Positions 1,847 through 39,074 of a stretch of 39,252 bases of DNA are shown here, one piece after another; the stretch's first letter is position 1; every line of letters starts with the position of its first letter. Source of the DNA: Escherichia phage EcoDS1; the sequence record NC_011042.1; one strand, written 5' to 3'. The position numbers and the translations under genes are program-made. A model generated the notes under the pieces. It searched no databases. It was not told the DNA's origin and was given only the letters and a program-made list of their open reading frames with translations.

Positions 1847-2244
1847 TGAATATGTCAAATCTGGTACACGCAATGGACTCAATCATATCGCTTCGCACAT
1901 TCACTGATAAGAACGGCGTAGAGTGGAAGTACGTCGGCACGGACTCTCGCGGTCGCGACTACTGGGAGAAGACCGGGAACAAGACCGCTTATGTACATCG
2001 ACACTCGTCACACGCCGCACGTCAACAGCAGGAGCGTGACCGTGTACTACAGGCACGACTCCGGGCAGAGGGCCATAAGTCTGAGCTGCTGTGTCTGGCG
2101 TATGGTGGACGACCAATCACCGACGATGGTAAACTTCTGGTCTCAGGCTGGAAGGCGATAGACCAACGGTCAACCATCAAGCACACGACTCATGGTGACT
2201 TCAGTCATCTTCACGCTAACCCACTGATATGCAAGGTATTCTGA
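1846..2244 (+). CDS. Early protein of unknown function (132 aa)
   Basis: ORF track; TAATG coupling to the upstream ORF; occupies the position of T7 gene 0.7 but is far shorter and has no kinase motifs I recognise. Confidence 0.6.
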   Translation: MNMSNLVHAMDSIISLRTFTDKNGVEWKYVGTDSRGRDYWEKTGNKTAYVHRHSSHAARQQQERDRVLQARLRAEGHKSELLCLAYGGRPITDDGKLLVSGWKAIDQRSTIKHTTHGDFSHLHANPLICKVF

Positions 2245-2266
2245 CTTAACTATCACTATAGGACTC
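2244..2266 (+). promoter_or_regulatory. Phage-RNAP promoter upstream of gene 1
   Basis: ACTTAACTATCACTATAGGACTC matches the 11-copy consensus (-17..+6, +1 G at 2261). Confidence 0.7.
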
Positions 2267-2335
2267 AAGGTCTAAGACTCCAAGTGAAAGACCAAAGAGA
2301 CTTTAAGTGAAAGACTAATAACAAGGACTTTAAGT

Positions 2336-5017
2336 ATGAGCGTCATCTCTATTGACAAACACGACTTCTCTGATGTGTCGAACGCCATTGAGCCGTTTAA
2401 CCTGCTGGCTGACCACTACGGGCAAGATCTTGCAGTCAAACAGCTTCAGCTTGAGCATGAGGCATACACTGAAGGCGAGCGACGTTTCATCAAGAACCTT
2501 GAGCGCCAGACTGAGCGCGGGGAACTGGCAGACAATCAGGTCGCCAAGCCTCTTATGCAGACTCTGGTACCTAAGATTGCGCAAGCCGTCAGGGAGTGGC
2601 ATGAAGGTCCAGACGGGAAGCTGTCAACCTCTCGTCCTAGCGTAGCGTTCACCATGTTGAGCACTGAAGAGAAGGCCGTCAAGGATCGCTCTCTTCGTAT
2701 CTCTTGCGAGTCTGCTTCGGTCATCATACTGAAGGTCATACTCTCCAAGCTGGTCAAGCCTGAAGGGATACCGATTACACCGATGGCCTCCGCGATAGGT
2801 CGCACACTTGAGGATGAAATCCGCTTCGGGCGCATTCGTGACAAGGAGAAAGAGCACTTCAAGAAGGCGATAGCTGATAACCTGAACAAGCGAGCTGGGG
2901 CATCCTACAAGAAAGCCTACATGCAAGCGGTTGAGACATCCATGCTGGAGCAGGGTCAACTGGAAGATGCGTGGGGAACTTGGAGTCCTACAGAGGCTGT
3001 CCACGTTGGCATCAAGATGCTTGAGATTGTCATCCAGTCAACACAACTGGTCGAGCTTAAGCGGTACGGTGCTGGCAATGCAGCGGCTGACGTAGAGATG
3101 GTCCACCTGTCAGACTTCTGGGTCAAGAAGATGGCACAACGAGGATTCAGCCTAGCGGGTATCGCTCCAGTCTACCAGCCTTGCGTCGTTCCACCTAAGC
3201 CGTGGACTGGTGTAGTAGGCGGTGGGTACTGGGCCAAGGGTCGCAGACCACTACCACTGATTCGCTTAGGGTCTAAGTCTGCGGTGGCACGTTACGAAGA
3301 CGTGTACATGCCTGAAGTCTATGACGCTGTGAATATCATCCAGAATACACCTTGGAAAGTTAACAAGAAGGTGCTGGAAGTGGTGAACATGGTCGAGAAG
3401 CTGAACAACACGCCTATTGATGACATCCCTCAGATGGAACCGCTGAAGCCTGAAGACTATGCAGGTGAGACTGAAGAGGAACTCAAGGCATGGAAGAAGG
3501 CTGCTGCTGGTATCTACCGCCGAGAGAAGGCCCGGCAGTCACGTAGATTGTCACTAAGCTTTATCGTCAACCAAGCGAACAAGTTCTCTCAATTCAAGGC
3601 CATATGGTTTCCGTACAATATGGACTGGCGCGGCCGTGTCTACGCTGTTCCGATGTTCAACCCTCAAGGTAATGACATGCAGAAGGGCCTTCTGACTCTG
3701 GCAGTCGGTAAGCCTATTGGTGCCGATGGGTTTAAATGGCTGAAGGTCCACGGTGCAAACTGCGCGGGTATCGATAAAGTAACCTTCGAGGAGCGCATCA
3801 AGTGGGTGGAGGACAACCACGACAACATCATGGCTACTGCTAAGGCACCGATGGATAGCATTGAGTGGTGGGGCAAGTTAGACTCTCCGTTTTGCTTCCT
3901 TGCGTTCTGCTTCGAGTATGCTGGCGTGATGCATCACGGATTGTCTTACTCCTGCTCGCTGCCAATAGCTTTCGATGGGTCCTGCTCTGGGATTCAGCAC
4001 TTCAGCGCGATGCTTCGTGATCACATCGGTGGACATGCAGTAAACCTGACGCCTTCCGGTAAGGTCCAAGACATCTACCGCATCGTGTCTGACCGCATTG
4101 AGGAGGAGCTTAAAGTCCTGCTGGTTAACGGCACGGACAACGAGATGGTAACTCACGAGGACAAGAAAACTGGTGAGATTACCGAACGTCTCAAGCTGGG
4201 GACACGAGAGCTGGCCCGGCAGTGGCTTACTTACGGCATGTCACGTAAGGTCACTAAGCGTTCGGTCATGACTCTGGCCTACGGGTCGAAAGAGTATGGC
4301 TTCGCAGACCAAGTTTACGAGGACATCGTGATGCCAGCGATTGACTCAGGGTCTGGCGCTATGTTCACTGAACCAAGCCAAGCGTCTCGCTTCATGGCTA
4401 AGATGATTTGGGAAGCTGTGAGCGTGACCGTAGTTGCTGCGGTTGACGCGATGAAGTGGCTTCAAGGTGCTGCCAAGCTGCTGGCTGCTGAAGTGAAAGA
4501 CAAGAAGACTGGAGAAATCCTGAAGCCTTGCCTTCCGGTACACTGGGTCACACCTGATGGGTTCCCGGTCTGGCAGGAATACCGCAAGAAGGATACCACT
4601 CGTCTGAACCTGATGTTCTTAGGGTCATTCAACCTTCAACCTACGGTCAACAAAGGCACGAAGAAAGAGTTGGATAAGCACAAGCAGGAGTCGGGCATTA
4701 GCCCGAACTTCGTCCACTCACAAGATGGTAGCCACCTCCGCAAGACTGTAGTCCACACGCACCGCAAGTATGGCGTGATGTCATTCGCAGTGATTCACGA
4801 TAGCTTCGGGACCATCCCGGCTGACGCTGAGTATCTGTTCCGTGGTGTCCGTGAGACGATGGTCGAGACCTACCGCGACAACGATGTGCTGCTTGACTTC
4901 TACGAGCAGTTCGAATACCAGCTTCACGAGAGCCAGCGCGACAAGTTGCCTGAGCTTCCGAAGAAAGGTAAACTGAATATCGAAGACATCTTGTCTTCAG
5001 ACTTTGCATTCGCTTAA
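2336..5017 (+). CDS. T7-type single-subunit DNA-directed RNA polymerase (gp1)
   Basis: 893 aa; long stretches match T7 RNAP (CVVPPKPWTG, AIWFPYNMDWRGRVYAV, DSPFCFLAFCFEYAGV, LPIAFDGSCSGIQHFSAMLRD, HDSFGT, C-terminal FAFA). Confidence 0.98.
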   Translation: MSVISIDKHDFSDVSNAIEPFNLLADHYGQDLAVKQLQLEHEAYTEGERRFIKNLERQTERGELADNQVAKPLMQTLVPKIAQAVREWHEGPDGKLSTSRPSVAFTMLSTEEKAVKDRSLRISCESASVIILKVILSKLVKPEGIPITPMASAIGRTLEDEIRFGRIRDKEKEHFKKAIADNLNKRAGASYKKAYMQAVETSMLEQGQLEDAWGTWSPTEAVHVGIKMLEIVIQSTQLVELKRYGAGNAAADVEMVHLSDFWVKKMAQRGFSLAGIAPVYQPCVVPPKPWTGVVGGGYWAKGRRPLPLIRLGSKSAVARYEDVYMPEVYDAVNIIQNTPWKVNKKVLEVVNMVEKLNNTPIDDIPQMEPLKPEDYAGETEEELKAWKKAAAGIYRREKARQSRRLSLSFIVNQANKFSQFKAIWFPYNMDWRGRVYAVPMFNPQGNDMQKGLLTLAVGKPIGADGFKWLKVHGANCAGIDKVTFEERIKWVEDNHDNIMATAKAPMDSIEWWGKLDSPFCFLAFCFEYAGVMHHGLSYSCSLPIAFDGSCSGIQHFSAMLRDHIGGHAVNLTPSGKVQDIYRIVSDRIEEELKVLLVNGTDNEMVTHEDKKTGEITERLKLGTRELARQWLTYGMSRKVTKRSVMTLAYGSKEYGFADQVYEDIVMPAIDSGSGAMFTEPSQASRFMAKMIWEAVSVTVVAAVDAMKWLQGAAKLLAAEVKDKKTGEILKPCLPVHWVTPDGFPVWQEYRKKDTTRLNLMFLGSFNLQPTVNKGTKKELDKHKQESGISPNFVHSQDGSHLRKTVVHTHRKYGVMSFAVIHDSFGTIPADAEYLFRGVRETMVETYRDNDVLLDFYEQFEYQLHESQRDKLPELPKKGKLNIEDILSSDFAFA

Positions 5018-5032
5018 CAGCAGGAGAAGTAT

Positions 5033-5263
5033 ATGTCAATGAAACTTGTAGCACACAACAAGGCATTCAACGATGGGTCGGGACGTTGCCATGTAGAGCT
5101 GACTTATAAGGATTTAATCATTCTCCGAGACAGATTACAGTCGGGTGTGACTGGGTGGATTCAACCTAACGAGTACAACCTTATAGCTTCGATTGATGAA
5201 GTTCTTAACGCGTGGATGAAAGACGAGCGCACTCAGTATCCGTCATTCCCTACAATTAGATAA
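5033..5263 (+). CDS. Hypothetical early protein (76 aa)
   Basis: ORF track; GGAG RBS before ATG; no T7 counterpart at this position. Confidence 0.55.
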   Translation: MSMKLVAHNKAFNDGSGRCHVELTYKDLIILRDRLQSGVTGWIQPNEYNLIASIDEVLNAWMKDERTQYPSFPTIR

Positions 5264-5273
5264 GGAGAGAGTT

Positions 5274-5489
5274 ATGAAATTTGCACACAAGCAGACAGGC
5301 GTTAATGGTGGGACTCAAATCGTGACCGTAACAGAACACAACGGCAAGGGTCTGGTGAAGACCACGGTCATCCCAACCAAGATGTCCAAGCAGCTTAACA
5401 TCCAGTTCAAGACTCTTGTATATCTGGTCGAGTCCAGCCACGAGAAGTTCCTGAAGGACGCAGTGTCCAAACTGGAGCAGACCAAATGA
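5274..5489 (+). CDS. Hypothetical early protein (71 aa)
   Basis: ORF track; AGGAGAG RBS; no recognisable motif. Confidence 0.55.
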   Translation: MKFAHKQTGVNGGTQIVTVTEHNGKGLVKTTVIPTKMSKQLNIQFKTLVYLVESSHEKFLKDAVSKLEQTK

Positions 5490-5563
5490 CAGACCTGCAG
5501 TTACTGGCCCTGTGGCTGGGAGCACTTGCAGTATTCACTTTAATCCAACGCAGAAGAGGTTAA
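5486..5563 (+). CDS. Small hydrophobic peptide (25 aa)
   Basis: ATGA overlap with the upstream stop; MTDLQLLALWLGALAVFTLIQRRRG is a single TM-like helix with a basic tail. Confidence 0.35.
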   Translation: MTDLQLLALWLGALAVFTLIQRRRG

Positions 5564-5567
5564 CCCT

Positions 5568-6038
5568 ATGTTCGGTAAGTCAAAACTTAAAGCACAAATC
5601 AAAGAGTTGAGCATGAAGGTGGCATACTTGGCGCGAGAAGTAAAGGTCCTAGATAACAACAATGAGAGATTGAAGGGTAAACTTGCTGAATCAGAGCGTA
5701 AGCGCCTAACGCCACCAGCGTCCGTAACTGTCAAGCGTATGGTAGGCATCAAGTTCAAGGTACTGTTCAACGGGCTGTACCAACCGACTGAGTTCAAGAC
5801 TGGACCGGGTAACTGCGGTAAGAACGTTAAGCACTTCACTACATCGAAGACTGAACGCACCATTACCATCCACCAGCACCACATAGATGGGTCTCAGAAA
5901 GACTTCGAGTACCGACTGAGCGACATCGACGGTCGAATCCAGTATGACTATGAGCAAGTTAAAGTCTACGGAGAAGAGGCCGAACGTGAGCGAGAGCTTC
6001 AGGCATTCATGCGGGTAAGGCCGCGCATCATCTTCTAA
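5568..6038 (+). CDS. Hypothetical early protein (156 aa)
   Basis: ORF track; AGAGG RBS; N-terminal charged/coiled-coil-like region; its TAA stop lies inside the following phage promoter. Confidence 0.6.
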   Translation: MFGKSKLKAQIKELSMKVAYLAREVKVLDNNNERLKGKLAESERKRLTPPASVTVKRMVGIKFKVLFNGLYQPTEFKTGPGNCGKNVKHFTTSKTERTITIHQHHIDGSQKDFEYRLSDIDGRIQYDYEQVKVYGEEAERERELQAFMRVRPRIIF

Positions 6039-6056
6039 ACTATCACTATAGGATTA
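6034..6056 (+). promoter_or_regulatory. Phage-RNAP promoter (phi1.1-like)
   Basis: CTAAACTATCACTATAGGATTAG; +1 G at 6051. Confidence 0.8.
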
Positions 6057-6061
6057 GACTC

Positions 6062-6088
6062 AAGGTCATGACTCAGAGTCGTGGCCTT
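6062..6088 (+). other. RNase III-type processing hairpin (R1.1-like)
   Basis: AAGGUCAUGAC/GUCGUGGCCUU stem of 11 bp including G-U pairs, 5-nt loop; paralogous to the hairpins at 13055 and 35950. Confidence 0.5.
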
Positions 6089-6126
6089 CATGATTAACCC
6101 TAATAAACTACTGGAGATTTAACCGT

Positions 6127-6561: not shown

Positions 6562-7658
6562 TGACAACTATCAAGACCAACCCGCACCGCGCTGTAGATT
6601 ACTCTGAGTCTGGCATTAAGAAGGCGCTGGAAGCAGCCGGGTCTCTGGAAGCTGAAGTGAAGTATGATGGTGTCCGGTTGAACCTCCCAGTCTTCCCGAC
6701 AGGCGAGACCCAGTGGTTGAGCCGAGAGTCCAAGCCTCTTCCAGCCCTTGAATGGCTATCGGTCCTGACCAGCCTCGATAATATCGTGGAAGACCAGCAG
6801 CGCGCTAGCGACTGGCGGTGGTTCCTGAAGCAAGCCGGCTATGAAGGGACTGGCCTGATGATTGATGGCGAGGTCATGGTGAAAGGGGTAGACTTCAACA
6901 CATCTTCGGGCCTCATTCGCACGAAGTATGTCAAGTCTAAAAACTACGACTTCCACGATGGCGATTGGGACCTCAAGTCCAAGACTACTCAGTTCCGGCT
7001 GGACCGAGACCATATCAAGGTGGTCGTCTATGGTATCATAGACCTTAACGTCATCCTCGACCCGAAAGCCGAAGGTCCTATCCATAGCGTCACACGCCTG
7101 AAGGCCGAAGCTATCGTCCCTCTCCTCCAGAAATACTTCCCGGAAATCGACTGGGTTCTGTCTGAGTCACACACGGTCTATGACCTTGAGTCGCTCAACT
7201 CCCTGTACGAAGAGAAGCGTCTGGAAGGACACGAGGGTCTGGTAGTCAAAGACCCGCTGGGTAAATACAAGCGTGGCAAGAAGTCAGGCATGTGGAAGAT
7301 GAAGCCTGAAGACACCATCGACGGGACCGTGTGTGGACTCGTGTGGGGGACTCCGGGTAAGGCTAACGAAGGCAGGATCATAGGCTTTGAGGTGCTGCTG
7401 GAGGACGGCATGGTGGTGAATGCATGCGGCCTGACTGAATCTCAGAAGGACGAGTTCACAGCTAAAGTCGCTGAATCTAGTGGTTATACCTTGGCTGGCG
7501 GCCCTGTGGTTATTCAGGATGGGACCGAGAAGACCAACCCGTACCACGGATGGCAGGTAGAAGTCCTATACATGGAGCGATTCCCTGACGGCTCACTGCG
7601 TCACCCTAGCTTCAAGTGCTGGCGCGGAACGGAAGATAACCCGACCATTAAGAGCTAA
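6561..7658 (+). CDS. ATP-dependent DNA ligase (gp1.3)
   Basis: 365 aa; EVKYDGVR adenylation motif, EGLVVKDP, GKKSGMWKMKPE, SLRHPSF all match T7 ligase. Confidence 0.95.
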   Translation: MTTIKTNPHRAVDYSESGIKKALEAAGSLEAEVKYDGVRLNLPVFPTGETQWLSRESKPLPALEWLSVLTSLDNIVEDQQRASDWRWFLKQAGYEGTGLMIDGEVMVKGVDFNTSSGLIRTKYVKSKNYDFHDGDWDLKSKTTQFRLDRDHIKVVVYGIIDLNVILDPKAEGPIHSVTRLKAEAIVPLLQKYFPEIDWVLSESHTVYDLESLNSLYEEKRLEGHEGLVVKDPLGKYKRGKKSGMWKMKPEDTIDGTVCGLVWGTPGKANEGRIIGFEVLLEDGMVVNACGLTESQKDEFTAKVAESSGYTLAGGPVVIQDGTEKTNPYHGWQVEVLYMERFPDGSLRHPSFKCWRGTEDNPTIKS

Positions 7659-7667
7659 CTAAATGTC

Positions 7668-7703
7668 AACCCAGTGGTCTTCACGGACTGCTGGGTTTCT
7701 TTG
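7668..7703 (+). terminator. Intrinsic terminator after the early region (TE-like)
   Basis: AACCCAG...CTGGGTT stem followed by TCTTTG U-tract immediately after ligase, the position of T7 TE. Confidence 0.6.
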
Positions 7704-7724: not shown

Positions 7725-7747
7725 CCTAAGCTATCACTATAGGACAA
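7725..7747 (+). promoter_or_regulatory. Phage-RNAP promoter
   Basis: CCTAAGCTATCACTATAGGACAA; +1 G at 7742. Confidence 0.75.
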
Positions 7748-8448: not shown

Positions 8449-8568
8449 ATGAACCAAGACCAGATTAACTTTGTGTGTCAGCTTATTAAGGAGTTCGTTG
8501 ACTTCACTGATTTATCCGAAGATGAACTTGTTAAGCTGGAAGAGATTCTAGACAAGGAGATTTTATGA
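8449..8568 (+). CDS. Small acidic protein (39 aa), gene 1.8 position
   Basis: GGAGAGG RBS; stop overlaps the gene 2 start (ATGA). Confidence 0.4.
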
Positions 8569-8723
8569 GCGACGTCGAGAAGAAATACATCGTGGAGCTT
8601 GAGGGTCGAGTTAAGTCCTTCGAGGTTCCGGTGTACGCAAAGTCTCTTGAAGAGGCTACCCTGAAGTCCCAAGAGTATGAGGACGCTGGGTTTGTGGTCG
8701 GACGGATTCGTCCTGAGACCTAA
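8565..8723 (+). CDS. gp2-like inhibitor of host RNA polymerase
   Basis: 52 aa; SFEVPVYA and [10 protein letters not shown] resemble T7 Gp2; below the ORF-track cutoff. Confidence 0.7.
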
Positions 8724-9935: not shown

Positions 9936-10423
9936 GCAAGAAGTTTAAACTGTCAGTAGCTACGTGTGGCTGGCCTCGTGGGACTATCGTTACCAAGTGT
10001 GAGAAGGATCCTAGCCCCCGTCCGGGCATGACCCTAGTTGAGTGCCATACTCCAGGCATCTACAAACACGGGTCTAACGGCCACAATACTCAGCCTGATG
10101 GTATGTGGGGAGCATGGGTCTCTGCTTATGACCTTGAGGAAATCAAGCCGGAAGAGAAACTCACTGGTGTACAGACCACTCAAGTCCTACCAGCTTCGAG
10201 CGTACCTCCCGTGACAGTGAAACGCGAAGTCCTGACAATCGATAAGATTGGCGTTGGTCAGACGTTCATCGTCCACGGTAAGCCTGACGAAGTTTACGTT
10301 AAGATTAGCAACTCTCACGTCTTCAACCATAAGCGTCTCCAGATGCATACCACGGACGCACAACGCTTCACCCAGCACCTGAATCTGGTGGTCGTAGAAT
10401 TGGTGGTGTACAATGGTAAGTAA
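9932..10423 (+). CDS. Hypothetical protein (163 aa) between endonuclease I and lysozyme
   Basis: ORF track; start and stop both overlap neighbouring genes; no T7 counterpart at this position; several Cys in the N-terminal 40 aa. Confidence 0.65.
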   Translation: MSKKFKLSVATCGWPRGTIVTKCEKDPSPRPGMTLVECHTPGIYKHGSNGHNTQPDGMWGAWVSAYDLEEIKPEEKLTGVQTTQVLPASSVPPVTVKREVLTIDKIGVGQTFIVHGKPDEVYVKISNSHVFNHKRLQMHTTDAQRFTQHLNLVVVELVVYNGK

Positions 10424-10871
10424 GGTACAGTTCAACCCACGGTCCCGGACTGACGCTATCTTCGTTCACTGTTCGGCTACCAAGCCAGAGATGGACATCG
10501 GGGTAGAGACCATCCGTATGTGGCATAAGCAACAAGGCTGGCTGGACGTAGGCTACCACTTTATCATCAAGCGCGATGGTACTGTGGAAGAGGGGCGCCC
10601 GGTCAATGTCGTAGGGTCACACGTTAAGGACTGGAACTCCAAGTCCGTAGGCGTCTGCCTTGTAGGTGGAATTGACGCTAAGGGCAAGTTTGAAGCTAAC
10701 TTCACTCCGGCCCAGATGAACTCACTACGCAACAAGCTGGCTGACCTGAAGGCCATGTACCCTCAGGCAGAAATAAAAGCACACCATGACGTCGCACCAA
10801 AGGCGTGTCCAAGTTTCGACTTACAACGCTGGCTGGCTACCAATGAGCTGGTCACTTCCGACCACGGTTAA
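10413..10871 (+). CDS. Lysozyme / N-acetylmuramoyl-L-alanine amidase (gp3.5)
   Basis: 152 aa; DAIFVHCSATKP, GWLDVGYHFIIKRDGTVEEGR, VCLVGGID, HHDVAPKACPSFDL match T7 lysozyme. Confidence 0.95.
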   Translation: MVSKVQFNPRSRTDAIFVHCSATKPEMDIGVETIRMWHKQQGWLDVGYHFIIKRDGTVEEGRPVNVVGSHVKDWNSKSVGVCLVGGIDAKGKFEANFTPAQMNSLRNKLADLKAMYPQAEIKAHHDVAPKACPSFDLQRWLATNELVTSDHG

Positions 10872-13044: not shown

Positions 13045-13054
13045 GTCTAAACTC

Positions 13055-13079
13055 AAGGTCATTCACATAGAGTGGCCTT
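13055..13079 (+). other. RNase III-type processing hairpin (R4.7-like)
   Basis: AAGGUCAUUC/GAGUGGCCUU stem, 5-nt loop; paralogue of 6062 and 35950. Confidence 0.5.
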
Positions 13080-13107
13080 TATGATTAGACTAAACGGAGG
13101 ATTAACC

Positions 13108-16991: not shown

Positions 16992-17014
16992 ACTAAACTA
17001 TCACTATAGGGACT
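16992..17014 (+). promoter_or_regulatory. Phage-RNAP promoter (phi6.5-like)
   Basis: CACTAAACTATCACTATAGGGACT; +1 G at 17009. Confidence 0.8.
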
Positions 17015-25349: not shown

Positions 25350-25399
25350 AAGGGCCTATAGATTTACCTTAACTATCACTATAGGGACTATAGGCCCTT
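25350..25399. repeat. 12-bp perfect inverted repeat enclosing the phi13-like promoter
   Basis: AAGGGCCTATAG (25350..25361) and CTATAGGCCCTT (25388..25399) are exact reverse complements. Confidence 0.6.
25367..25389 (+). promoter_or_regulatory. Phage-RNAP promoter (phi13-like)
   Basis: CCTTAACTATCACTATAGGGACT; +1 G at 25384. Confidence 0.8.
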
Positions 25400-35929: not shown

Positions 35930-35949
35930 ATCTCTTAAGTGTTAGACTC

Positions 35950-35976
35950 AAGGTCATTACTGTATGTAGTGGCCTT
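35950..35976 (+). other. RNase III-type processing hairpin (R18.5-like)
   Basis: AAGGUCAUUAC/GUAGUGGCCUU 11-bp stem with G-U pairs, 5-nt loop; third paralogue. Confidence 0.5.
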
Positions 35977-36039
35977 TATGGTTAACACTAACTAGTGGAG
36001 GAGACTCTACGTGAAATCTGATAAACCGGGAGGGCACCC

Positions 36040-38936: not shown

Positions 38937-39074
38937 CTACTGTAGTCAAGGACCTAAAGTAACACTATAGCAGTCCATGGTCTATCCCAAGGTCTCTGAC
39001 ATACGGTATTACCTACAGTAGCAGGGACTCCTAAGGAGGGACGATGAGTTTTGGACCAAAAGTTTGAGACCACA

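Follow-up and report, generated by a model that had tools for sequence, protein, structure and literature searches.

The genome of Escherichia phage EcoDS1 (NC_011042.1) carries, directly upstream of the gene encoding the phage RNA polymerase (gene 1), an exact match to the promoter consensus of that polymerase. This element, hereafter named phi1, is almost certainly a working promoter for the phage's own RNA polymerase, judging from its conservation and from its co-variation with the specificity loop of the polymerase. Its role is most likely a class II-type self-transcription of gene 1, which would be ordinary within the clade. A promoter before gene 1 is already known: K1F-like and gh-1-like phages carry one as a rule, and it has been annotated or reported in relatives. 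The analysis covered the whole stretch of 39,252 nucleotides (hereafter the window), which is the complete K1F-like (Kayfunavirus) genome of a T7-like phage.

Promoter phi1 and the leader of gene 1

The features of the window that bear on the transcription of gene 1 are given below.

609-638, + strand: best sigma-70-like early promoter, TTGACA-18-TAGCAT (consensus scan)
1846-2244, + strand: upstream early ORF, gp0.38 family in K1F nomenclature (phrog_7066), whose end meets the start of phi1
2244-2266, + strand: phi1, phage RNA polymerase promoter ACTTAACTATCACTATAGGACTC, 23 bp, -17 to +6, exact consensus match
2261, + strand: predicted transcription start (+1 G), from the alignment with the T7 promoter consensus
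2261-2335, + strand: phi1 leader, A-rich, 75 nt (composition, repeats)
2323-2338, + strand: Shine-Dalgarno AAGGA, 8-nt spacer and gene 1 ATG (sequence)
2336-5017, + strand: gene 1, single-subunit RNA polymerase, 893 aa (ORF and comparison with K1F gp1)
5033-5263, 5274-5489 and 5568-6038, + strand: three small ORFs without a phage promoter of their own
6034-6056, + strand: next phage promoter (weight matrix), followed by an RNase III-like hairpin, region to 6100
7668-7703, + strand: early terminator-like hairpin and T-run, TE analogue (sequence; position analogous to T7 TE)
8565-8723, + strand: gp2-like host RNA polymerase inhibitor (phrog_1307, 3.4e-23)
10413-10871, + strand: gp3.5-like amidase, T7 lysozyme homologue (phrog_822, 3.5e-81)

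A preliminary description of this DNA had placed a consensus phage promoter about 75 bp before the ATG of gene 1, and this was borne out: ACTTAACTATCACTATAGGACTC is found at 2244-2266, on the + strand and pointing into gene 1, its first base being the final base of the TGA stop codon of the upstream ORF. The +1 register was set by aligning phi1 with the T7 promoter consensus, which is established knowledge, and the predicted start at G2261 lies 75 nt from the ATG at 2336. With a leave-one-out weight matrix built on the other nine strong promoters, phi1 scored 30.1 bits and those nine promoters 27-34 bits; the highest minus-strand match genome-wide reached 10.6 bits, which equals the background maximum. 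Two matches were obtained when up to 3 mismatches to the phi1 23-mer were allowed, versus 0 expected from 100 shuffles. The genome contains 11 phage promoters of the phi1 type, all of them on the + strand (11/11). The initial sequence of phi1, GGACTC, is of the “GGA” type, common to the promoters at 6034, 7725, 8719, 19813 and 33040.

The placement of phi1 is intergenic, at the end of a gene and 5' of an ORF with a ribosome-binding site. It lies upstream of the polymerase gene, and no terminator-like site was detected in 1-2336, including 2261-2336. The polymerase shares 99% identity with K1F gp1, and the specificity loops of the two enzymes (RLNLMFLGSFNLQPT) are the same. From +7 to +76, A and T make up 66% of the leader and A alone 46%. 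The leader contains the repeats RAGACY and ACTTTAAGT; exact matches to GACTTTAAGT on the + strand occur at 2299 and 2326 only. Positions 2324-2338 correspond to the initiation region of T7 gene 1.1 at 15/15 bases (reciprocal best blastn-short match, T7 5995-6009). Homology of the whole leader to the T7 phi1.1B leader was rejected, the common part being this 15-nt initiation region only.

On the upstream side, the first transcripts of gene 1 probably come from the sigma-70-like promoter at 609-638, and the scan detected no terminator-like site from there to gene 1. On the downstream side, the weight-matrix scan found no further phage promoter from 2244 to 6034, so that phi1 is the sole phage promoter serving the three small ORFs. 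The canonical RNase III-like hairpin that follows the 6034-6056 promoter contains ACTCAAGGTCAT...GTGGCCTTCATGATTA, and the terminator-like hairpin at 7668-7703 sits after the ligase gene, ahead of the promoter at 7725.

Conservation of phi1 and co-variation with polymerase specificity

A promoter-type repeat is present 88-122 nt before gene 1 in EcoDS1 and in 20/20 loci of the K1F/CR8 clade, defined by a polymerase at least 79% identical and analysed by a direct 16-mer repeat test and a core search. An automatic 15-mer consensus mis-registers the K1F-type promoter by taking in flanking bases, and it called phi1 in just 9 of 17 loci. Among 19 K1F-type loci, 2 of the 23 columns of the phi1 core are variable, versus 15 of 60 in the flanks. 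A promoter was also found at the phi1 position in 31/35 further loci, 28 being gh-1-like or more distant; the distance to gene 1 in these lineages is 78-207 nt. The arrangement, initially regarded as unusual, thus proved to be routine among the relatives.

In each lineage, phi1 matches the promoter type of its own genome, and it co-varies with the polymerase in the specificity region (-12 to -8). K1F-type loops go with AACTAT, T3-like loops with AACCCT and the CR8 loop with AGGTAC. The L023 and EcpYZU01 loci encode a T3-like loop (RLDL...FRLQPT, D/R), and AAACCCTCACT is the sequence of each of their promoters, phi1 among them, while CR8 has the specificity loop RIKLMFMGVQYRPT and every promoter of this phage, including phi1, reads AAGGAAGGTACACTATAGG. 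In the Ro45lw-like subclade, phi1 has an A at -2, where the other promoters of that genome differ. According to the phiIBB-PF7A paper, a T at -2 goes with the highest promoter use, and phi1 may therefore be deliberately weak.

The loci of the T7, T3, K11 and similar types are organised differently. A promoter lies within 400 nt before gene 1 in 0/60 of them, and T7-, T3- and K11-type loci carry one within 150 nt 3' of gene 1 in 53/54 cases (median 12 nt). In the K1F/CR8 clade, such a 3' promoter is present in 0/17 scored loci, and the first promoter after gene 1 is located at 234-1024 nt (20/20 loci). SP6 has no promoter immediately 5' of its polymerase gene. The preliminary description of T7 was thus partly right: T7 lacks a phage promoter immediately before gene 1, and K11 and phiYeO3-12 likewise have none at the phi1 position. 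Its statement that only host promoters serve T7 gene 1 overlooked phiOL, at nt 405 and before all early genes. T7 keeps phiOL at its left end, as do the T3-type, K11-type and similar phages, so a phage promoter does precede gene 1 in T7, as in EcoDS1, but about 2.8 kb away and on the far side of the host promoters. As phi1.1A/B, the earliest class II promoters of T7, come after gene 1, the T7 gene is not part of the first class II unit. The phi1.1B leader has AGGACTTTAAGTATG at its end, as does the EcoDS1 leader. Equivalents of neither phiOL nor phi1.1A/B are found in the K1F clade.

Other readings of the promoter and its leader

Could the 23-mer serve the host polymerase, or be a chance or relic match? 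The GenBank feature note of PE3-1 labels the identical 23-mer “host RNAP promoter”, and a minor E. coli promoter (C) occupies the equivalent position in T7. However, the PE3-1 feature spans 23 bp and is of exactly the same type as the phi6.5 and phi9 features of PE3-1, and the consensus scan found no sigma-70 hexamer pair (-35/-10, 16-18 nt spacing) around 2200-2336. A chance match is excluded by the 30-bit score together with the co-variation with polymerase specificity across lineages, and we consider this whole group of explanations extremely improbable. Another reading takes the leader as the counterpart of the T7 R1 RNase III site, which is present at the equivalent position in T7 and phiYeO3-12; its motif would then serve mRNA processing, not promoter function. 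The motif already noted in the leader is indeed there (ACTCAAGG at 2263-2270). It is enriched genome-wide (12 copies versus 1.4 expected) and supplies the 5' arm in three clear RNase III-like hairpins (6058, 13051 and 35946). Its link to these hairpins is nevertheless weak, only the 5' half being shared: the leader has the 5' arm GACTCAAGGTC, but the 3' arm GTGGCCTTTATGATTA is missing, and the two-turn irregular hairpin of T7-type RNase III sites, with arms ACUCAAGGUCAU ... GUGGCCUUUAUGAUU, is not formed. In single-sequence folding the leader behaves like shuffled sequences (z = 0.28 for 2261-2345 and 0.48 for 2200-2345), RNAalifold on nine leaders yielded a 5-bp GGUCU/AGACC stem of -2.66 kcal/mol essentially without covariation, and an Rfam search of the leader returned no match. 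This reading was dropped on the basis of the lack of fold signal, covariation and Rfam match, and we regard it as very unlikely.

The two remaining alternatives leave phi1 a genuine phage promoter and concern what it is for. A replication origin is a possible but doubtful function of phi1 and its A/T-rich leader, either as their main role or as a further one, with phi1 transcripts priming DNA synthesis. The model for this is the T7 primary replication origin, formed by phi1.1A/1.1B and the adjacent AT-rich segment just 3' of gene 1, a location at which the K1F clade has no promoter; in the phiYeO3-12 record, an origin likewise follows closely on phi1.05, directly behind gene 1. With 66% AT, the leader ranks 249 of 39183 70-nt windows (top 0.6%), yet this is well under the roughly 79% of the T7 origin, and the phi6.5 leader is richer still (69%). 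One primase-type TGGTC is present on the minus strand of the leader, where an estimated 0.6 or so such pentamers are expected by chance. The initiation region shared with T7 gene 1.1, which is located after the T7 origin promoters, also fits an origin, but these 15 nt could reflect convergence on a strong ribosome-binding site. An origin would be compatible with self-transcription, and we offer tentatively, at low probability, the idea that the K1F/CR8 clade has its first class II module (promoter, A/T-rich leader and AGGACTTTAAGTATG initiation region) before gene 1, phi1 being both a self-amplifying promoter and an origin. As the layout is common to gh-1-like phages, it could be the ancestral Studiervirinae arrangement, the T7 textbook layout then being derived. 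Alternatively, phi1 could be conserved but minor for gene 1 expression, playing a phiOL-like role from a position shifted about 2 kb inward, which appears unlikely. In T7, phiOL is thought to act as a secondary origin or in transcription linked to concatemer processing. Phages of the T7, K11 and YeO3-12 types all carry phiOL, while the weight matrix revealed no phiOL-like site in 1-2243 of EcoDS1, and where clade loci include a long stretch before phi1, the promoter preceding it is the phiOR of the previous genome unit; phi1 is therefore the sole left-end phage promoter of the K1F/CR8 clade. Against a displaced phiOL stand the constant spacing of phi1 to gene 1 (88-122 nt, and 78-207 nt in distant lineages), followed by a ribosome-binding site, and the phage PCS5, which carries a phiOL-like site and phi1 together.

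Probable self-transcription of gene 1 and comparison with known systems

The preferred reading is self-transcription: phi1 very probably drives a positive autoregulation in which gene 1 is primed by the host and then self-transcribed. Host RNA polymerase, starting from the left-end sigma-70 promoters, would read through to produce the first gene 1 mRNA, and once some phage polymerase has been made, initiation would occur at G2261. The resulting transcript would cover gene 1 and the small-ORF trio behind it, as far as the 6034 promoter. With both host read-through and phi1 initiation, gene 1 would be at once an early gene transcribed by the host and a member of the first class II-like unit, transcribed by the phage polymerase. 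Via phi1, the phage polymerase can probably amplify its own synthesis. This autoregulation would outlast the shut-off of the host polymerase by the gp2-like protein, after which gene 1 transcription would be sustainable by phi1 only. T7 lysozyme limits class II promoters. By analogy, its gp3.5 homologue would probably limit self-transcription and is a candidate brake on the phage RNA polymerase at GGA-type promoters. The analysis establishes the sequence match of phi1, its position, its conservation and its co-variation with polymerase specificity; use of phi1 in vivo and a feedback loop with a brake are what we infer. A match to the consensus does not by itself prove that a promoter is used during infection: phiOL of T7 has a good sequence yet contributes little RNA. 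Our literature search found no transcript data for Kayfunavirus, and the text of a candidate paper on K1B4 contains no RNA polymerase, promoters or Kayfunavirus.

Close counterparts exist among sequenced phages. K1F has the identical 23-mer at 2474-2496, at an equal distance from gene 1, and 11 promoters in the same order as in EcoDS1. The identical 23-mer of PE3-1 (2874-2896) also lies at an equal distance and is annotated in GenBank, and the Sparklingdew paper describes a CTWAACTATCACTATAGG repeat at the 3' end of the gene ahead of the polymerase gene. With 92-94% identity to the nearest records, EcoDS1 represents a separate species-level genome, and its phi1 arrangement shows no essential difference from theirs. 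The meaning of the promoter before gene 1 in K1F, PE3-1 and Sparklingdew is not discussed in the literature searched, which did not include the original K1F paper. Further away, CR8 (Caroctavirus), phiIBB-PF7A and PCS5 (Pifdecavirus), M3.1 and other gh-1-like phages have a promoter about 80-210 nt before gene 1; it is annotated in GenBank for CR8, and the phiIBB-PF7A paper, which names promoters for the downstream gene, lists a phi1. The leaders that follow these promoters are rich in TTAAG/TAAAG motifs, as in EcoDS1. The promoter sequences differ from those of EcoDS1, each being fitted to its own polymerase. Some of these phages, such as PCS5, unlike EcoDS1 keep a phiOL-like site and also have a promoter right behind gene 1.

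Two systems show the logic of such a circuit. In LUZ100, a phage-specific start directly before the polymerase gene was mapped by ONT-cappable-seq, and a positive feedback loop primed by host read-through was proposed (Putzeys et al. 2023, PMC10134795). A MarR-like repressor was proposed as the gate of the LUZ100 loop, and this phage has temperate features, whereas EcoDS1 is organised on a lytic T7-like plan and no lysogeny-related gene was seen among its scanned early ORFs. The engineered “T7 autogene” has an equal circuit logic, the polymerase transcribing its own gene after a trigger amount has been supplied (PMC6395690, PMC1500874), but it is artificial, whereas the EcoDS1 circuit would be natural, set in a timed infection programme and with host read-through as the trigger. 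The K1F polymerase and the PK1F promoter form a working orthogonal pair (PMC12218169), which bears on EcoDS1 through the 99% identity of its polymerase to that of K1F.

The value of these results lies in a confirmation and a clearer comparative picture; the element itself is not a discovery. T7 is the textbook case of a phage polymerase gene that is strictly early and host-transcribed. The wiring of K1F-like and gh-1-like phages differs from that of T7 in that the polymerase can transcribe its own gene. This gives context to users of the K1F polymerase and promoter for orthogonal expression and to models of infection timing in T7-like phages, and it would offer a simple natural case of positive feedback that a protein probably restrains.

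The promoter upstream of gene 1

The window, 39,252 bp long, holds the complete genome of a T7-like phage of the genus Kayfunavirus (K1F-like), with a direct terminal repeat of 178 bp. The gene 1 region shares 94-96.5% identity with SEA1f, Bas105 and PE3-1, and the first 20 kb share 92-94% with the nearest records. A gp2-like host polymerase inhibitor and a gp3.5-like amidase are both encoded, and no 0.7 kinase was found among the encoded genes. Just inside the left terminal repeat lies a short direct-repeat array (187-324), made of 3.6 copies of TCAATAACCATAAG (100% match) that sit within longer periods of 28 and 58 nt, in which CCTACAGTC occurs; a comparable (acctacagtcaac)3 array is annotated in CR8.

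Promoters and polymerase gene in the window
2244-2266, + strand: phi1, putative phage RNA polymerase promoter, ACTTAACTATCACTATAGGACTC
2336-5017: gene 1, RNA polymerase, 893 aa, 99% identical to K1F gp1, with identical specificity loop
11107-11129, + strand: eleventh and weaker promoter, upstream of gene 4, CCTAAACTATCACCTTAGGGATG, 25 bits

The preliminary description had placed a consensus phage promoter upstream of gene 1, and this was confirmed: with a weight matrix built without phi1, the 23-mer at 2244-2266 scores 30.1 bits, the other nine strong promoters 27-34 bits, and the best minus-strand site of the whole genome 10.6 bits. The match is far beyond chance. All ten strong promoters have the form CTA(A/T)ACTATCACTATAGG and lie on the + strand. 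In the T7 register, the +1 of phi1 is G2261, 75 nt from the gene 1 ATG at 2336, and the promoter begins on the final stop-codon base of the upstream ORF (1846-2244). With GGACTC as its initial sequence, phi1 belongs to the "GGA" type common to middle-region promoters, while the promoters at 16992, 20819, 25367 and 38500 are of the GGG type. Since no weight-matrix match was found between 2244 and 6034, phi1 is the only phage promoter available to gene 1 and to the three small ORFs within 5033-6038. Elsewhere, a degenerate promoter-like site (38953-38975, CCTAAAGTAACACTATAGCAGTC, 16 bits) lies downstream of the right-end promoter phiOR (38500), some 120 nt short of the right terminal repeat, and a partial tandem copy of the promoter core (TATCACTATAGGGACTATAGGCCC) follows the gene 13 promoter (25367-25398).

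Conservation and polymerase specificity

Loci around polymerase relatives were taken from IMG/VR and submitted to a consensus-free test, which asked whether any 16-mer of the 400 nt before gene 1 comes back beyond the gene with no more than 2 mismatches. A recurring element was present in all 19 testable loci whose polymerase shares 79% or more identity with the window's, located 90-121 nt upstream of gene 1 and with at least 3 copies downstream; none was detected in 60 loci at 58-64% polymerase identity (T7-, T3-, K11-type and similar). A core search in the K1F/CR8 clade found the promoter in the window and in 20/20 loci, with the core starting at -88 to -114. Among 19 K1F-type loci, 2 of the 23 promoter columns are variable (-17 and -13), against 15 in the 60 nt upstream. 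phi1 is real and conserved.

The strongest comparative evidence that phi1 is functional, as judged from sequence, is that the site follows polymerase specificity. In locus L023 and in EcpYZU01, the specificity loop is T3-like (RLDLMFLGTFRLQPT versus RLNLMFLGSFNLQPT in K1F) and every promoter reads AAACCCTCACT(A/G)TAGG, the site before gene 1 included. In CR8, the loop is RIKLMFMGVQYRPT and AAGGAAGGTACACTATAGG is found at all promoters, again including the position before gene 1. A site rewritten in this way at each change of polymerase specificity is selected for recognition by that polymerase. The T3-like switch occurs within or next to Kayfunavirus, at 88% polymerase identity, and the loop residues change from N to D and from N to R, at positions that we take to correspond to T7 N748 and R756. 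The T3-like promoters (AAACCCTCACT...) lie at L023:7909-7931 and EcpYZU01 (L090):9029-9051, with the loops in the same loci.

Genomes of the Ro45lw-like subclade carry CACTAAAGG as the promoter ahead of gene 1, with an A at -2 that is confined to phi1; their other listed strong promoters are CACTATAGG or CACTGTAGG.

Copies of phi1 in Ro45lw-like genomes
L016:2400-2422
L017:7903-7925
L018:3052-3074
L024:7903-7925
L025:3399-3421

This site is missing from the annotation of the Ro45lw paper. According to the phiIBB-PF7A paper, position -2 sets promoter strength. The A at -2 suggests that phi1 strength is tuned, and in this subclade phi1 may be deliberately weakened.

Arrangement in other phages

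As annotated in their records, T7, K11 and phiYeO3-12 carry the phage promoter phiOL near the left end, as well as host promoters; a phage promoter stands immediately after gene 1, and none directly before it. For T7 the preliminary description was half right: the immediate upstream flank of gene 1 has no phage promoter, but phiOL (nt 405) does lie upstream of the gene. A promoter within 150 nt after gene 1 is present in 53/54 T7/T3/K11-type genomes (median 12 nt) and in 0/17 of the K1F/CR8 clade, where the first one is found 234-1024 nt downstream, with one to three small ORFs in between. In the window, the weight-matrix scan found no phiOL-like site in 1-2243. In those clade loci whose upstream flanks are long, the promoter that precedes phi1 is phiOR, belonging to the genome unit before. 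Consensus phage promoters also occur inside the early region of some T3-, K11- and T7-like genomes, 0.6-2 kb before gene 1, making polymerase-driven gene 1 transcription possible in several lineages without a gene-1-proximal promoter.

Early-region promoters
L049:6416-6438 and 7368-7390 (-1585 and -633)
L083:6653-6675
L038:4748-4770

The arrangement had been regarded as unusual; it turned out to be normal in Kayfunavirus and in several other genera. Perfect copies of their own promoters precede gene 1 by 123 nt in M3.1 (Pseudomonas, Ghunavirus) and by 110 nt in PCS5 (Pseudomonas, Pifdecavirus). Among 35 further loci retrieved with a gh-1-type polymerase profile, 31 carry a promoter 78-207 nt upstream, 28 of them non-Kayfunavirus. 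Such a promoter is absent in Vibrio N4/VP4-type phages and SP6.

Nor is it new, being already annotated or reported in relatives. K1F has the identical 23-mer and the same 11 promoters as the window, and the CR8 record annotates a "predicted promoter" at this position. A phi1 is among the promoters of the phiIBB-PF7A paper, which names them by downstream gene, and the paper on phage Sparklingdew (2026) lists the promoter repeat where the gene ahead of the polymerase gene ends. In LUZ100, a phage-specific start directly before the polymerase gene was mapped by ONT-cappable-seq; its authors put forward a loop in which the polymerase boosts transcription of its own gene (PMC10134795). The engineered "T7 autogene" (PMC6395690, PMC1500874) has the same circuit as that proposed here for phi1 and gene 1, and the K1F polymerase/PK1F pair is in use as an orthogonal expression system (PMC12218169).

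The phi1 leader and the proposed role

Of the eleven promoter leaders, that of phi1 (+7 to +76; 66% AT, 46% A) is the richest in A; its AT content is in the top 0.6% of 70-nt windows, and it holds the only two exact + strand copies of GACTTTAAGT. It ends in the 15-nt initiation region of gene 1, AGGACTTTAAGTATG (2324-2338), which matches the T7 gene 1.1 initiation region (5995-6009 in L005) exactly and is a reciprocal best short-blast match between the window and T7 regions; this reflects either convergence on a strong ribosome-binding site or a moved promoter-leader module. The motif ACTCAAGG, previously linked to RNase III-like hairpins, is real and enriched (12 copies versus 1.4 expected). 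The hairpins at 6058, 13051 and 35946 carry both arms (ACTCAAGGTCAT ... GTGGCCTTTATGATTA), but the phi1 leader only the 5' arm.

Canonical T7-type RNase III-like hairpins, ACTCAAGGTCAT...GTGGCCTT(T/C)ATG(A/G)TTA
6058-6100
13049-13100 (over the 38 nt of 13049-13086, it shares 95% identity with the T7 RNase III site R1.1)
35946-35990

The leader folds no better than shuffled sequences (z = 0.28; 0.48 with upstream sequence), all that an alignment fold of nine leaders retained was a 5-bp GGUCU/AGACC stem, with no meaningful covariation, and Rfam returned no match for it. With the 3' arm absent, a canonical RNase III site was rejected, and a role of the leader as an RNase III site is highly improbable. 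The AT-rich leader, the missing promoter after gene 1 and the gene 1.1-like initiation region would all suit a replication origin, a reading compatible with a promoter role; the evidence is thin, and we consider it unlikely. It is improbable that phi1 is mostly silent, with a phiOL-like role. The PE3-1 GenBank record annotates the 23-mer (KJ748011.1, 2874-2896) as a "host RNAP promoter", which looks like an annotation error: the 23-mer is the consensus phage promoter and lacks sigma-70 hexamers; a host promoter or a chance match is barely conceivable.

By sequence criteria, phi1 is almost certainly functional, and we infer, beyond the sequence and comparative facts, that it is very probably used by the phage polymerase in vivo. 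The top sigma-70 promoter of the left end lies at 609-638, and no terminator-like site was found between it and gene 1. Host polymerase would initiate at the left-end sigma-70 promoters and read through into gene 1; the phage polymerase, once made, would use G2261 as a start and transcribe the gene that encodes it. On the T7 analogy, gene 1 transcription would be sustained by phi1 after host shut-off and later damped by the lysozyme homologue (the gp3.5-like amidase).

phi1 departs from the textbook layout of T7, yet would not surprise a specialist. L023 and EcpYZU01 provide a natural case of polymerase and promoter specificity shifting jointly among close relatives.
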